Assembly (NCBI GenBank): GCA_947625645.1
Contig: CANQPE010000004.1
Span: 2,467 to 66,466, forward strand
DNA length: 64,000 nucleotides
Direction of reading: 5' to 3'
From: an uncultured Clostridia bacterium
GTDB taxonomy: Bacteria > Bacillota > Clostridia > TANB77 > CAG-508
Below, piece after piece: positions 38,985 through 44,574 of the stretch. Each line of letters opens with the position of its first letter. The first letter of the stretch is position 1. A program made the translations under genes and the position numbers. The notes under the pieces were generated by a model. That model did not search any database. It worked only from the letters and a program-made list of their open reading frames with translations, and had not been told where the DNA came from.

Positions 38985-39977
38985 TTATAAATCGGCAAGC
39001 GGGTTGTTTTCCACAGCATCTCTTACTTGTTCATTGTTAACATGAGTATAAATTTCAGTTGTAGAAATACTTTCATGGCCTAGTAATTCTTGTAAAGCCC
39101 TGATATCTACCTGTCCATACTGATACATTAAAGTAGCTGCTGTATGACGTAATTTATGGACAGAATATTTAGAAGGGTCTAAGCCAGCAGCCAATAATTT
39201 TGTGTAAACGATATGTTGAACAGTTCTTCTGCTAATTCTTTCTTTACGTTCACTTAGAAACAAGGCTTTTTGCGAATTTAGTTTATCTGTCTTGATGCCA
39301 GTTTTAGGTTTAACAGCTAAATATTCATTAATTGCTTTAATACATGCGTGATTCAAATAAATGGTTCTTTCTTTATTCCCTTTTCCAATCACCGTTAATT
39401 TATTTTCACTAAAATCAATATCGGTAACATTAATACCAACAAGTTCAGAAAGACGCATACCACAATTTAAAAATAGAGTGATAATAGCATAGTCCCTTTG
39501 ATGATTTCGATTATCTACACTGTCTGTAACTTGTAATAATTTTTTACTATCATCTAAATTGAGATATTTGGGTTGTCTTTTATCTAACTTAGGTGTTTCT
39601 AAGTTTTGAGCAGGGTTTGTCTCAATAGTATACATAGAGTCAGCTTTTTGACTTAAATATTTAAAAAATATTCGAATGGTAGAGATTTTACGCGCCCTTG
39701 TGGTTGCTTTACTTTTTTGTTCTCTTGCTAAGTAAGCAATAAAAGCATGGATATCGTTTAATTGTATTTTTCTAACGGTATCCATAGAGATATCATCAAT
39801 GGTAATTTTGTCAAAATCTGTTTCATTGGTTAATTGAAAATGGATTTTTATAAATTTAAAAAACATAGACAAGTCATAATAGTACTCTTTAATACTATTA
39901 GGGGACTTATTCAAAATAGTAGTACTGTAGTCTAAGAAGGCATTTACGCATTCTGGAACCATTTCAGAATGAATCAT
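38985..39977 (-). CDS. Tyrosine site-specific recombinase (XerC/D-like integrase)
   Basis: N-terminal SAM-like domain. NCGMRLSELVGINV, HKLRHTAAT, LLGHESISTTEIYTHV. Start set at MIHSEM, behind aaaggaaag. Confidence 0.85.
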   Translation of the reverse strand: MIHSEMVPECVNAFLDYSTTILNKSPNSIKEYYYDLSMFFKFIKIHFQLTNETDFDKITIDDISMDTVRKIQLNDIHAFIAYLAREQKSKATTRARKISTIRIFFKYLSQKADSMYTIETNPAQNLETPKLDKRQPKYLNLDDSKKLLQVTDSVDNRNHQRDYAIITLFLNCGMRLSELVGINVTDIDFSENKLTVIGKGNKERTIYLNHACIKAINEYLAVKPKTGIKTDKLNSQKALFLSERKERISRRTVQHIVYTKLLAAGLDPSKYSVHKLRHTAATLMYQYGQVDIRALQELLGHESISTTEIYTHVNNEQVRDAVENNPLADL

Positions 39978-40803
39978 ATGTATCACTTTCCTTTCATGGT
40001 ATACATTATGGGATAGGGTAGGGGGGAGCAGAGTCATGAATTCCCATAAATGTTTAATTGAATTTTACCAATAGTAAAAAATAGAGAATAGGGAATAGGG
40101 CACATGAAAAATTGAAAAAGGTAAAACAAAATTTTATTTTTTCTTTAAATATTTTTTAGCTTATGAAAATTTTTTTTTGCATTTAAAAAATTTTATAAAT
40201 TTAAAATTTGAAAATTAAAAAAATTTTGTAAATTTTTATCTTAATTCAATTTTTATTGTGTATGCATTATAAATTTTACTAAGTATCATTTTAATTAATA
40301 TTTTTATCATTTGACGCATGAAAATCCATTTTAAACAATTTTTAGTTAATAGCAATAAATTATATTAGTTAAAAAATGATTGGCATCAAATTAAAAATGA
40401 TAAACAGTATTAAAATAAAGCAATTATCCAGTAAAGCAAAAATTTGGCCAAAAAGCGACGCACGAGAATCGATTTTAAGCGATTTTTATTTTTTAGACAA
40501 CAAGTTATATGTGCGAAAATAGCTTAAAATAGCGACTTATAGACGTTTTTGCAAGGAATCAATTTTTCCCACCCTCTATTGCGCAAAACTTTGATTTTGT
40601 GCAATGTTTTATATTCAAAATTAATAAGAGATTTCCTCTCTTCCCGCCTTTTTTGTTTATTTAACTTATAAAAACAAATAATAAAAATGTATTCAATTTT
40701 TATTAATATACCATTGATTAATGATTGTGTCAATACTTTTTTAAAAAAAATTTTAAAAATTTGAAGCTTTTTTTAAATTTTCCATTACATCTCCCCTTTT
40801 TAT

Positions 40804-40994
40804 GATTGGATTTTCTTTTGCCGAAAGATTAAATTGACTTAAAATTTGTTCGTATGTGTCACGCACTAAACTAATTCTCAAACTTGCTTCTTGAGATTCA
40901 AACGCTCCCCTACCCTAATGCCACTACTTAAAAATAGACCAATAATTGCATTGTTCGGCATGTATTTTTACAATTTTGCATCGTAAAGACATTC
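40804..40994. repeat. 191-bp direct repeat, copy 1
   Basis: Identical to 41493..41683 except for 3 mismatches. The minus strand encodes an integrase-like fragment, ..NAIIGLFLSSGIRVGERLNLKKQ. Confidence 0.9.
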
Positions 40995-41171
40995 TGTATT
41001 TTTTTGGCTTCTTCGATATACAGTTGATAAATTACCATTTTCATCTCTAACTTTGCTATCTTTAAAAAATTCTTGCTGTTGTTTTGAAAGCTGTCTACCT
41101 TGATTGTCAGTTTCTATATCATTTCTATCAGATTTTTGTATTGGGTTGGTATTATTTTGATTTTTCTGCAT
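40968..41171 (-). pseudogene. Fragment resembling the N-terminus of conjugative-element or phage polyvalent proteins
   Basis: ..LSKQQQEFFKDSKVRDENGNLSTVY.. resembles the FK.WFGDSKVVDENGKPLVVYHGT start of such proteins (from memory). It is truncated by the repeat. Confidence 0.35.
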
Positions 41172-41191
41172 AGAATTATTATTAGTAGTAT

Positions 41192-41446
41192 TTACTGAGT
41201 AATTGACACTTTTATTACTCTGTGATATACTATAATAAGAGTTGATTGAACCAACTTGGGCAATTGGAGCCCTCTGTTCGTAATCAACTCTTGTAATCTT
41301 TTAGAATTAACTTGTAATATATTATTTTCTTTTATATTTTTTTCTAAAAAATTACTTAAGTTTTCTTTAGCATACATTGATGCAATTTTATTTACTTTTA
41401 AACGTTTTTCTAATTTATTAAAAATTTCCATTGTAAACTTAGCCAT
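41192..41446 (-). CDS. Hypothetical 84-aa ORF between the direct repeats, probably a gene remnant
   Basis: ORF only. No family recognised. Confidence 0.25.
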   Translation of the reverse strand: MAKFTMEIFNKLEKRLKVNKIASMYAKENLSNFLEKNIKENNILQVNSKRLQELITNRGLQLPKLVQSTLIIVYHRVIKVSITQ

Positions 41447-41492
41447 TTTAGCTTCTTGTCCATTATGTGTAGATCGTTCCTGTCTGACATTC

Positions 41493-41683
41493 GATTGGAT
41501 TTTCTTTTGCTGAAAGATTAAATTGACTTAAAATTTGTTCGTATGTGTCACGCACTAAACTAATTCTCAAACTTGCTTCTTGAGATTCAAACGCTCCCCT
41601 ACCCTAATGCCACTACTTAAAAATAGACCAATAATTGCATTGTTCGGCATGCATTTTTACTATTTTGCATCGTAAAGACATTC
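41493..41683. repeat. 191-bp direct repeat, copy 2
   Basis: See copy 1. The period is 689 bp. Confidence 0.9.
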
Positions 41684-41929
41684 CCTTTCATTTCTTATCG
41701 CCTATACGTTATGTATACTTGCAATATAGTATATCACAACAAATGCTATGATGTCAACACACAAATTTATATAACATCAAAAGAAAAAAATAAATAACCA
41801 AAAAAAACAGAATCACAAAATGCATAAACAACATCATTTACGTGGATTTCAGGACACGATATATAAAAATATTATTATATGCCAAAAATACATAAATATT
41901 ACACACACACTAGCATAAAAATATAATAT

Positions 41930-42040
41930 TTGACATATTATAAAATATGTGCTATTATAATTATAGCAATTACTTATTAGGTCAAGTAATATGTACACTA
42001 AAAAAGACTAGGAAGCTCGAACAATTTCCTAGTCTTTTTT
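41930..42040 (+). ncRNA. Candidate ~75-nt sRNA (promoter to bidirectional terminator), convergent with the small toxin-like ORF
   Basis: TTGACA (41930-35), 17 nt, TATTAT (41953-58). Internal hairpin attactt/aagtaat. Terminator agactaggaa/ttcctagtct (42005-42035) with T-run. Contains atatgtac, complementary to the gtacatat around the ORF start codon. Confidence 0.4.
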
Positions 42041-42044
42041 CTTA

Positions 42045-42113
42045 CTAATCACTCAAATGCTTTACAACTAAGTAAATTACATAGAGCTTTAGTAGCTGAA
42101 TTAGGTCTTTCAT
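42045..42113 (-). CDS. 22-aa hydrophobic peptide MKDLIQLLKLYVIYLVVKHLSD (type I toxin-like)
   Basis: Strong RBS aaaggaggg 5 nt before the ATG. Minus-strand promoter TTGACA (42182-77), 18 nt, TGtTATATT (-10 at 42158-53). A 5' hairpin cctttct/agaaagg (42123-42145) sequesters half of the SD. Ends at the bidirectional terminator. Confidence 0.5.
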   Translation of the reverse strand: MKDLIQLLKLYVIYLVVKHLSD

Positions 42114-42254
42114 ATGTACCCTCCTTTCTACCTTTTGGAGAAAGGCAACCTTAATATAACACAAATTGTTTTAATATGTCAAATAGGAATAAACAAAGCA
42201 TAAAAATATAATAATAAAATAAATGTTTTACAATTCACTTTTTTTACAAAATAC

Positions 42255-42283
42255 TTGTCGAATGAAGGAATTTATTGTATAAT
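42255..42283 (+). promoter_or_regulatory. Sigma-A type promoter of the paralogous small-ORF cassette
   Basis: TTGTCG, 17 nt, TATAAT (42278-83). Divergent from the minus-strand promoter at 42153-42182. Confidence 0.55.
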
Positions 42284-42324
42284 AAAGAAGCCTACTTTCT
42301 CAGTAGCAGAAAGTAGGGACATCA

Positions 42325-42429
42325 TTGAAAGACCTTATGAAGTTGCTTAAACTTATATTGATTTATTACATAATTTGCAATTGTTATAATTATAATAACA
42401 CATTTTTTATTACCTGTCAATATATGTAA
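42325..42429 (+). CDS. 34-aa paralog MKDLMKLLKLILIYYIICNCYNYNNTFFITCQYM (TTG start, possibly decayed)
   Basis: The nucleotide sequence tgaaagacct.a....g.t.ct.aa.ct.ta is shared with the 42045..42113 ORF. It is preceded by the 10-bp hairpin cctactttct/agaaagtagg (42291-42317). Confidence 0.35.
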   Translation: MKDLMKLLKLILIYYIICNCYNYNNTFFITCQYM

Positions 42430-42536
42430 TTTTCAAAATGTTAATTTATTTTTTTGTTTTAAAATTAAATATTTACTTAAATATAACTAGGCGAGAGATT
42501 TAATTTATGATGCTTTAGCATCTTTTTAGCAGGGAT

Positions 42537-42571
42537 ATTGACAATTGGTTTTTTCAATGCTATACTATTAT
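42537..42571 (+). promoter_or_regulatory. Consensus-like sigma-A promoter with no ORF downstream (possible sRNA)
   Basis: TTGACA, 17 nt (attggttttttcaatgc), TATACT. A T-rich stretch (ttgtcttttatttttttttg) lies ~70 nt downstream. Confidence 0.4.
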
Positions 42572-42953
42572 TAGAGACAAGATTGATACTGTTGGACAAT
42601 TGGAGTCCAGGACTATTAATAAATTGTCTTTTATTTTTTTTTTGCCTTTTTGCATAGACCGCTTATTATTAGCAGTGCTTTTATTTGAATTTGATTTGAT
42701 ATTTTGATTATAAAGAGATGTGTTGACTAGGCACATCTCGGCGAAAAGTTCATGACATCATATGAACTTATAAGTTACTGTAATAATAACATATTTTTTT
42801 TGATATTGTCAATATCTAATTTTTGTGAATTTGTCAAATTTTGATTTGTGTTTATTGTACTATATTGATTTTTTAGTAAAAATTTAGTATAATTAGGATG
42901 ATGTTATTTGTAAAGTAGTGTTTCTAAAAACAAATGTAAGGAGGCACAGATGT

Positions 42954-43154
42954 ATGGGTAAAACTAAGGAAGATTCGTTAGAACATGTGAGAAAAATTCA
43001 ACAGCTTACGGCAAAGAAGAAAGAGATACCTTCTTTCAAACCTAAACCACATCCCTTCTGGAATACAGAATGTCCAGACGACATATTCAAAGCACATCCA
43101 GATTCCGCACAATCGATTCTTTACCGGCCATATCGCAGGCAAAACAAATCCTGA
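42954..43154 (+). CDS. Hypothetical 66-aa basic protein
   Basis: RBS aaggagg 8 nt before the ATG. Promoter-like TTGATT, 17 nt, TATAAT ending ~42890. Visibly higher GC than its surroundings. No family recognised. Confidence 0.5.
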   Translation: MGKTKEDSLEHVRKIQQLTAKKKEIPSFKPKPHPFWNTECPDDIFKAHPDSAQSILYRPYRRQNKS

Positions 43155-43165
43155 AAAGTAGAACC

Positions 43166-43200
43166 CTAACCAAAAAATCCAGCTCACTAAGAGTTGGATT
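43166..43200. terminator. Bidirectional terminator shared by the 66-aa gene and rho
   Basis: aaaaaatccagc / gttggatttttt stem with flanking A and T runs. Confidence 0.7.
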
Positions 43201-43215
43201 TTTTGATTTTCACGT

Positions 43216-44574
43216 TTATTTATACAATTTTAAATATAAGTCCATTTTTTCGATAAATTCGTCATTATTTTTCGTTTCTGTCATTTTCTTAATGACTTGT
43301 TCCGTTACTTCAGCAACTGGTAAACTGTTCATTGCTTTTCTTAATGCAAAAACAGTTTCTCTTTCTTTTGGCGTTAATAATAAATCTTCACGTCTGGTTC
43401 CAGATTTATTAATATCAATTGCTGGGAAAATACGTTTCTCAGATAGTTTTCTATCTAAGTGGACTTCCATATTTCCTGTTCCTTTGAATTCTTCAAAAAT
43501 AACATCATCCATTCTGCTTCCTGTTTCTACTAATCCAGTTGCTAATATGGTTAAACTTCCACCAAATTCAATATTTCTAGCAGCTCCAAAGAATTTTTTT
43601 GGTTTATGTAATGCTGCTGGGTCAAGCCCTCCTGATAACGTTCTTCCTGAAGAAGGAATAACTAAATTATATGCTCTTGCTAGTCTTGTAATACTATCTA
43701 ATAAGATAACAACATCTTTTCCGTGCTCTACAAGTCTTTTGGCTCTTTCTAGCACCATTTCAGCTACTTTAACGTGATGATCTGGTAATTCATCAAATGT
43801 TGAATAAATAACTTGTCCCTTGATAGAACGTTTCATATCTGTTACTTCTTCTGGTCTTTCATCAATTAGTAACACGATTAATTCTACTTCTGGATTGTTG
43901 GTTGTAATGCTGTTGGCAATTTTCTTTAAAAGAGTGGTTTTTCCTACTTTTGGTTGCGCAACAATCATACCTCTTTGCCCTTTTCCAATGGGGCTCATTA
44001 AATCAATAATCCTCATAGCATATTCATTTGGTATGGTTTCTAATTTTAATTTTTCATTTGGATAAATAGGAGTAAGTTCATCAAACCTTTTTCTTCTTGC
44101 TGCTTTTTCAGGATGCTCGCCATTGACTTCTCCAACAAAGATTAAAGATGGAAATTTTTCTCCTTCACGAAATCTAGAAATACCTTTAATGACATCACCG
44201 GTATCTAAACGAAATCTTTTGATTTGAATCATTGAAATATACACGTCTTTTGGTGTGGATAGATAATTTTCGCCTCTTAAAAAGCCATATCCATCTGGTA
44301 GAATATCTAAAATTCCTTCTACAATTTCATCCCCCTCATTTGTTAATTTATAATCAACAATCGGTTCTCCATTTTCATCGTATTGGGTTTGATTAACTGG
44401 CTTTTCTTCTGTTGCCTCTTTTGGTTGTGTTTCAACTGATTTTTCTTCTGTTTTGAGAACTTGACTTAAAATCTCAATCAATTCTTCCTTTTTTAATTTA
44501 GATATATTTTTTATATTGTTTTCTTTAGCTAGTATTTTTAGTTCTGCTAAAGTTTTTTCTTTTAATTCTGGCAT
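43216..44574 (-). CDS. rho: Transcription termination factor Rho
   Basis: N-terminal SAP-like domain, an OB/RNA-binding region (GFLR), Walker [25 protein letters not shown]. Confidence 0.95.

Follow-up and report, generated by a model that had tools for sequence, protein, structure and literature searches.

A candidate family of par-like type I toxin–antitoxin cassettes in uncultured gut Clostridia, with one intact and several broken copies in a single intergenic gap

The par locus of the Enterococcus faecalis plasmid pAD1 (RNA I/Fst and RNA II) is built from convergent promoters, a bidirectional terminator and direct repeats that are complementary over the toxin start, and its toxin mRNA carries in its 5′ part a stem-loop over the ribosome-binding site (RBS) as well as a helix at the extreme 5′ end (PMC7472228, which also mentions the SprA1/SprA1AS pair). 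Toxins of the Fst/Ldr type are recognized by a transmembrane helix with a P/D/S/TxxxG(C) motif inside it, a conserved Trp (Val in Fst itself) and a C-terminus that carries many charges (PMC7472228). Here, we describe a locus of closely similar layout in a 64,000-nt stretch from an uncultured Clostridia bacterium (assembly GCA_947625645.1, contig CANQPE010000004.1, positions 2,467 to 66,466; hereafter the window, whose first base is position 1). A gap of about 1 kb at 41900-42900, from which conventional genes are absent, contains one intact cassette together with two or three broken copies, the intact one combining an open reading frame (ORF) for a 22-residue peptide with the predicted gene of a convergent small RNA. 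We read this region as a small array of one family of type I toxin–antitoxin-like modules with the build of Enterococcus par, and put the probability of this reading at roughly 0.7. An earlier note on the same DNA had arrived at an uncharacterised type I-like family from the letters alone, and the comparative analysis bears this out in that the ~260-nt module is conserved and recurrent, its ORF is coding and its cognate pairing co-varies.

The intact copy, cassette 1, occupies positions 41925-42185 on the minus strand (~260 nt). Its toxin promoter (42153..42182, minus strand; TTGACA-18-TATATT, 11/12, TG present) is followed by a hairpin at the 5′ end of the predicted toxin mRNA (UGCCUUUCUCCAAAAGGUAGAAAGG, 42123..42147, minus strand), which overlaps the first half of the RBS, AAGGAGG (42120-42126, minus strand). 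Six nucleotides downstream of the latter, an ATG at 42113 opens the putative toxin ORF (42045..42113, minus strand; 22 residues, MKDLIQLLKLYVIYLVVKHLSD), and 9 nt separate its stop codon from a bidirectional intrinsic terminator (AAAAAAGACUAGGAA..UUCCUAGUCUUUUUU, 42000..42040, both strands), a 14-16-bp stem with A-run and T-run flanks that is common to both RNAs. From the opposite side, a second promoter (41930..41958, plus strand; TTGACA-17-TGcTATTAT, 11/12, TG present) is predicted to drive an antitoxin RNA of ~77 nt (41964..42040, plus strand), with a start near 41965. Both predicted RNAs fold much better than shuffled sequence (z -5.4 for the antitoxin and -4.5 for the toxin RNA). In the minimum-energy fold of the toxin leader, CCUUUCU pairs with AGAAAGG and buries half of the RBS; in the window copy, this helix competes with a second form. 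The elements of this unit had in essence been recognized before, namely a 22-codon ORF with a perfect, half-buried Shine-Dalgarno sequence and a convergent RNA of ~75 nt that shares the terminator and carries atatgtac; ORF, AAGGAGG and fold are confirmed, as are the RNA (at ~77 nt), the terminator at 42000-42040 and the octamer at 41989-41996.

The 5′ ~35 nt of the antitoxin RNA (41964-41999) are a repeat of the toxin translation-start region. Within them, the block attaggtc (41976-41983), complementary to codons 3-5 of the toxin, is presented in a hairpin loop, and the block atatgtac is single-stranded in the predicted fold. The resulting duplex between the antitoxin and the toxin mRNA was computed at -22.0 kcal/mol, a value reached by 2 of 500 shuffles.

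Searched by blastn, many congeneric genomes yielded almost complete matches to the 271-nt cassette (68-78% identity), frequently more than one apiece. An alignment of 16 copies from 16 genomes (A3; mean column identity 70%) served as the basis of a covariance model, R1, which picked up copies in 28 of the 37 genomes of this genus, to a maximum of 6 per genome. Among other genera of the same family, 2 of 6 were positive (with 2 and 7 copies), and 31 genomes from the order's other families gave one weak match. The nucleotide-level search in related genomes that had been proposed as a check on the type I-like interpretation thus finds the cassette recurring in the genus and in two further genera. 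We also scanned 185,579 species genomes for the terminator pattern and applied R1 to the loci fetched. Full-length matches were obtained in 27 named records, all of them metagenome-assembled genomes of uncultured Clostridia, Clostridium or Eubacteriales, recovered from rabbit, mouse, goat, Hadza stool and other sources; no named cultured organism among the fetched loci gave a full-length match, nor did the fetched loci of Metaclostridioides (L068) and Paraclostridium (L075). Within the window's own 1.25-Mb assembly, blastn detected no further copy of cassette 1, and the family model added only one of the broken copies (cassette 2).

Tandem arrays are frequent, with three copies in locus L066, two in L112 and four within 6.5 kb in genome G028, and partial copies are common in relatives. 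The arrays at L220 (G028:C1:49000-63000), L066 and L112 resemble the window in that each packs two to four cassettes into a few kilobases, intact copies being mixed with low-scoring, decayed ones. The neighbours in other genomes are housekeeping genes (rsmG-soj, recR-glycosyltransferase, CoA-enzyme activase, patatin, Tex and others), and some of them recur across species, which indicates that the family is mainly chromosomal and intergenic, without a tie to mobile elements. The expectation that such loci sit on islands therefore holds for this window and fails elsewhere, where copies are flanked by housekeeping genes.

By its pattern of change between copies, the ORF codes for a peptide under coding constraint. 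A frame of 22-23 codons is kept without insertions or deletions in all 16 aligned copies, with entropies of 0.80, 0.27 and 1.06 at the three codon positions. Extending the comparison to 65 distinct copies, 58 carry an ORF of 20-24 codons (exactly 22 codons in 45), the stop codon keeps a fixed distance of ~9-11 nt from the terminator, and the start codon varies among ATG, TTG and GTG. The ratio of nonsynonymous to synonymous substitution rates (dN/dS) over 40 distinct 22-codon ORFs was 0.33. None of the 40 has an open +1 frame; the +2 frame is closed in 32, and the eight open ones give 3.2. The peptide conforms to the consensus M-[KRH]-[DNE]-[LF]-[LI]-[KE]-[LV]-L-[KA]-L-[YI]-[LI]-I-Y-[LY]-I-V-K-[HN]-[LF]-x-[DKE], or, written with one residue per position, M-K-D-L-L-K-L-L-K-L-Y-L-I-Y-L-I-V-K-H-L-S-D. 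Its N-terminus (MKD) is polar, its core (LYxIYLxV) hydrophobic and its tail, of only 4-5 residues, charged; it carries a net charge of +1 to +2 and is amphipathic over residues 1-11 (hydrophobic moment 0.5-0.6).

In every intact copy, the toxin strand just past the terminator contains a diverged copy of the toxin translation-start region: the window copy has GTACATAT..GACCTAAT twice, and the copy in genome G026 has GTAATTCTT..ACCTAAT twice. The complementarity of the antitoxin runs, in two or three blocks, from just 3′ of the RBS over the start codon to about codon 9, and the paired stretch always covers the post-RBS spacer, the start codon and the first codons. Across 16 cassettes, the cognate duplexes had a mean predicted energy of -28.1 kcal/mol as compared to -14.0 ± 4.3 kcal/mol for non-cognate pairs, the cognate partner ranking first in 14 cases. 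The same held for a set of 56 cassettes (cognate mean -25.3 kcal/mol; non-cognate -12.8 ± 3.8 kcal/mol), with the cognate partner first in 39 and among the top three in 48. Toxin and antitoxin have repeatedly changed in concert, a pattern that is difficult to account for unless pairing is under selection. When the comparison was confined to genomes with 2-4 copies, most non-cognate pairs lay at background (within-genome means of -11 to -16 kcal/mol; strongest pair -23.9 kcal/mol), and judged by these energies the copies within one genome look largely orthogonal.

A further trait of the antitoxin lies at its very start. A perfect palindrome of 6-10 nt opens 56 of 63 predicted antitoxin RNAs, as opposed to 20% of control segments (family alignment A6). 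The palindrome differs between copies (GCAATTGC, GACGTC, CAACGTTG, GCTTAAGC and others) and is imperfect in the window antitoxin (GCAATTAC, 41967-41974, within 41964-41982).

Among the structural elements, the terminator helix has 95.9% of cells paired over 65 copies and compensatory changes at 9 of its 14 pairs. The toxin mRNA was predicted to begin with a leader hairpin of -3 kcal/mol or lower in 42 of 50 copies, the RBS had a pairing probability above 0.5 in 40-42 of the 50 (per-sequence folds), and the 16-copy consensus contains a helix GCCUUU/AAAGGY directly upstream of the RBS. The two promoters are kept to different degrees: a score of at least 10/12 was found for the toxin promoter in 51 and for the antitoxin promoter in 62 of 65 copies, an exact TTGACA in 38 and 62, and an extended -10 element in 8 and 46, respectively. 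The stronger conservation on the antitoxin side is in keeping with an antidote that is produced in excess.

The mechanism we propose is as follows. A constitutive-looking toxin promoter would produce an mRNA of ~145 nt, the first bases of which would fold into a hairpin that partly covers the RBS, and a stronger, better conserved promoter on the opposite strand would produce the ~77-nt RNA ending at the same terminator. Since the 5′ ~35 nt of this small RNA are a diverged repeat of the toxin start, it would pair with the mRNA from behind the RBS to about codon 9 and block the ribosome. With both RNAs present, the peptide would not be translated; were the small RNA to drop, the peptide would be made and would probably damage the membrane.

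Several points weigh against this reading. From the sequences, we show the build of the cassette, its coding constraint, its co-varying pairing and its distribution; toxicity, translation, transcript ends and biological role we infer. The predicted starts and ends of both transcripts were read from promoter and terminator motifs. When 65 copies are aligned to the model, few cells of the 5′ hairpin pair well (39-69%), so that burial of the RBS is a per-sequence prediction rather than a co-varying helix, and the apparent invariance of the terminator is inflated in that many of the named loci were fetched via the terminator pattern. As for the peptide, its uninterrupted hydrophobic run spans only 8-11 residues, in most cases with a Lys at position 9, and falls short of a normal membrane-spanning helix; unlike Fst, it has neither the PxxxG(C) motif nor a Trp (or Val) boundary residue nor a long acidic tail; and a scan of seven peptides against Pfam-A and NCBIfam (E ≤ 10) returned no family.

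Some of these points would also suit a small-protein gene under antisense control whose peptide is no toxin at all (for example, a small membrane protein tuning a transporter, a sporulation complex or a membrane complex) and whose RNA is an ordinary regulator instead of an antidote. Coding constraint and antisense pairing say nothing on toxicity, the hydrophobic core of 8-11 residues is short, and the copies elsewhere lie between housekeeping genes and not on mobile elements. We nevertheless regard this explanation as unlikely, given that a free-standing, multi-copy, patchy and often decayed module follows the pattern of type I systems and not that of an accessory subunit, that each copy has a private antisense specificity, and that no conserved partner gene accompanies the cassettes in the loci examined. 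Very improbable, in our view, is that the peptide is amphipathic and secreted, like phenol-soluble modulins or leaderless bacteriocins, with its production limited by the antisense RNA: none of the copies examined has a linked gene for a transporter, immunity or a regulator, the architecture is of the par type, and up to 7 mutually orthogonal copies per genome are not a bacteriocin pattern, even if the length of 22 residues, the net charge and the amphipathic first half of the peptide would be compatible with such a role. Least credible of all is a non-coding repeat with an incidental ORF, be it a miniature mobile element or a promoter-terminator insulator, for although the cassettes are multi-copy, intergenic, often tandem or fragmentary, and the two ends of the cassette share the ATTTGACATATTA motif in inverted orientation (I24), the low dN/dS, the conserved ORF length, the switching start codons and the closed other frames speak for a gene, the similarity of the ends in other copies does not exceed the -35 consensus, and no more than 2 of 16 copies are flanked by direct repeats, the last two findings having led us to reject a miniature mobile element.

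Cassette 1 itself is bracketed by such a repeat, a perfect direct repeat of 17 nt (AGCATAAAAATATAATA, 41912..41928 and 42197-42213). As comparable flanking repeats are restricted to the 2 of 16 family copies just mentioned, it is probably, albeit on weak evidence, the remnant of a lost tandem neighbour and not a target-site duplication. The segment at 42186-42262 was considered as a fourth cassette remnant and dropped, its alignment score of 59 exceeding the shuffle maximum of 56.5 by a small margin that was carried mainly by the 17-nt repeat.

Within the proposed type I-like array, cassette 2 (42252..42425, plus strand) is a deletion derivative (R1, 81.9 bits, E 3e-11, 84 model positions deleted). 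It retains a toxin promoter (42255-42283, plus strand; TTGTCG-17-TATAAT, 10/12) and a 10-bp 5′ hairpin (42291-42317, plus strand), which resembles a terminator when read on the minus strand, followed by a weakened RBS (AAGUAGGG) and a TTG start at 42325. After 17 homologous codons, at about 42375, the sequence joins the 5′ palindrome and promoter of the antitoxin directly, the end of the ORF, the terminator and the repeat being absent. The deletion junction falls on the antitoxin 5′ palindrome, and the antitoxin promoter (42392..42420, read 42420->42392 on the minus strand; TTGACA-17-TATTAT, 11/12, TG present) now directly opposes the truncated toxin ORF. Cassettes 1 and 2 are also related by an inverted repeat (I1; 41917-41982 versus 42368-42433, 76% complementary). 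Because the sequence jumps from toxin codons into the start of the antitoxin gene, the 34-codon ORF of cassette 2 is a read-through artefact. The earlier note had described a paralogous cassette with a 34-residue product whose first 14 residues are similar; the paralogy is confirmed by the model score, and the length has to be corrected to 17 homologous residues followed by read-through.

Cassette 3 (42715..42812, minus strand; R1, 21.2 bits, E 0.079; fold z -3.5) is an antitoxin-only half. It comprises an antitoxin promoter (42812->42783, minus strand; 11/12), a target-recognition region at about 42747-42777 (minus strand) that matches the translation-start region of cassette 2, and an altered terminator hairpin (42715-42739, minus strand) with a CCUAGUC remnant in its loop. 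The predicted duplex between the cassette 3 RNA and the start region of cassette 2 amounts to -25.7 kcal/mol, which equals a typical cognate pair and was reached by 1 of 500 shuffles. A third, internally deleted copy near 42740-42800 had been suspected beforehand; the copy exists, and in place of an internal deletion it represents the 3′ half of a cassette (altered terminator, repeat and antitoxin promoter). The tail taataataaca..ttgtcaatat, once taken for a common element, is in fact the antitoxin promoter read on the other strand.

From their sequences, cassettes 2 and 3 appear as decay products of former tandem copies, and may be read as complementary wrecks of sister copies with one specificity. 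With the 84-position deletion in cassette 2, the antitoxin-only cassette 3 and the partial copies in relatives, the previous description of the family as being in several states of decay was apt. The core of cassette 3 (42712-42777), which contains an 'MTSYELI' box, is 88% identical to a segment in a different context (G027:C8:25142-25207); as a separate recurrent element it was dropped, being present in only 1 of 60 relatives.

Two other elements share the gap. At 42538..42650 (plus strand) lies a separate unit with its own promoter (starting at 42538; TTGACA-17-TATACT, 11/12), a predicted hairpin RNA of ~70 nt (z -3.4) as well as a long T-run. The family model gave no match to it (8.6 bits) and blastn found no relative in 60 related genomes, and by these comparisons it stands outside the cassette family. 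The segment 42451-42526 is 83% identical to G041:C21:3434-3511, from a genome of another family of the order, where, as judged by eye, a minus-strand reading frame seems to end shortly before a hairpin (GATGCTTTAGCATC). By its likeness to this locus, 42451-42526 looks like a stranded gene-end remnant. Overall, promoter-like sites are enriched in the 3-kb region (30 as compared to 17.3 ± 3.8 in shuffles). The promoter scan recovered all four near-consensus promoters proposed at first reading (41930, plus; 42182, minus; 42255, plus; 42537, plus, which the scan places at 42538) at 10-11/12, and added the minus-strand promoters of cassettes 2 and 3 (42420->42392 and 42812->42783), which had been overlooked and score 11/12 each.

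The array in the window marks the edge of an AT-rich island that carries an integrase. To its left lie a gene for an XerC/D-like tyrosine integrase (38985-40037, minus strand), debris of duplicated genes and part of a phage MuF-like ORF; to its right follows rho (43216-44574, minus strand). Around 39000-42000, the cumulative GC skew reaches its maximum and gene orientation changes from plus to minus, a terminus-like switch beside the integrase and the AT-rich island.

Taken together, we class the cassette as an unannotated family, new in itself but of a known kind of system. Rfam 15 gave no match at gathering score in the whole window and nothing relevant at E ≤ 5 in 40000-43500; ten of the peptides, looked up exactly, are absent from a collection of 15 billion proteins; and a full-text literature search for four peptide strings found no paper carrying them. 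The term 'uncharacterised' in the earlier note accordingly stands as regards Rfam, Pfam, NCBIfam, the literature and the protein collection. The family is widespread and well backed by comparative evidence, and its hosts are uncultured small-genome gut Clostridia, a group in which, to our knowledge, almost nothing is known about RNA regulation. The many toxin/antitoxin pairs that it offers in nature, cognate as well as non-cognate and orthogonal inside one genome, constitute a ready data set for antisense specificity, and annotating the cassettes would stop intergenic 'gaps' from being misread.

A more speculative proposition, which we offer tentatively and would not rank as probable, is that the 22-residue peptides form a new minimal class of type I effectors and that the 5′ palindrome of the antitoxin is a functional element. 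As part of this proposition, the peptide would not act as a classical single transmembrane helix, being of insufficient length and broken up (Lys9, 8-11 uncharged residues). If this were true, the palindrome could drive homodimerisation of the RNA, shield its 5′ end or act as a recombination site, and, together with the private repeats, it would allow one genome of 1.2-2 Mb to carry as many as seven copies orthogonal to one another.

How, then, does the cassette compare with described type I systems? Those of Clostridioides difficile reportedly consist of small hydrophobic toxins of about 34-53 residues that are repressed by antisense RNAs, the antitoxins being true cis-antisense RNAs that overlap the toxin gene, and some are said to reside on prophages or islands. 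Both they and the cassettes occur in clostridial hosts, whereas the pairing region of the cassette is a displaced repeat beyond the shared terminator. Closer in this respect is SprA1/SprA1AS of Staphylococcus aureus, in which the two RNAs overlap at their 3′ ends, as in the cassette, and SprA1AS likewise represses through its non-overlapping 5′ part, which pairs with the translation-start region of the toxin. The toxin of that system, PepA1, belongs to the Fst family and has 30 residues and a full transmembrane helix, unlike the cassette peptide, and we detected no sequence relation between the cassette and SprA1/SprA1AS.

The closest architectural match remains par of pAD1. The convergent promoters (at motif level), the single bidirectional intrinsic terminator for both RNAs, and the direct repeats through which the small RNA gains its complementarity to the toxin start region are firm matches to its layout. 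Counterparts of the 5′ stem-loop touching the RBS and of the extreme 5′ helix are predicted in most cassette copies, without clean co-variation. As in Fst, a Lys-Asp start precedes a hydrophobic stretch and a charged tail, and like par-like loci, the cassettes are found both on chromosomes and on islands. The terminator was set aside as a sign of homology to other par loci: its arms (AAAGACTAGG..CCTAGTCTTTT) also occur in ordinary gene terminators of Staphylococcus, Streptococcus, Liquorilactobacillus and Metaclostridioides, and hence give no sign of deep homology. In dimensions the two differ, the cassette having a peptide of 22 residues (33 in Fst), a predicted toxin mRNA of ~145 nt (~230 nt in par) and a predicted antitoxin of ~77 nt as opposed to ~40 nt (PMC7472228). 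Unlike in par, the complementarity is spread over three blocks from the RBS to codon 9, and the antitoxin RNA opens with a variable palindrome. The hydrophobic run of 8-11 residues, often broken by Lys9, sets the peptide apart from Fst; its consensus lacks the boundary Trp of Fst/Ldr peptides as well as their long transmembrane helix and highly charged tail, and in a tabulation of 45 peptides of 22 residues, neither Pro nor Gly ranks in the top four at any position of the core (4-17). The cassettes thus constitute a new family of a well-known kind, known here from sequence alone, and the combination of a par architecture with a peptide that lacks the Fst/Ldr signature suggests that this layout may have been reused, or reinvented, for a different and very short effector.

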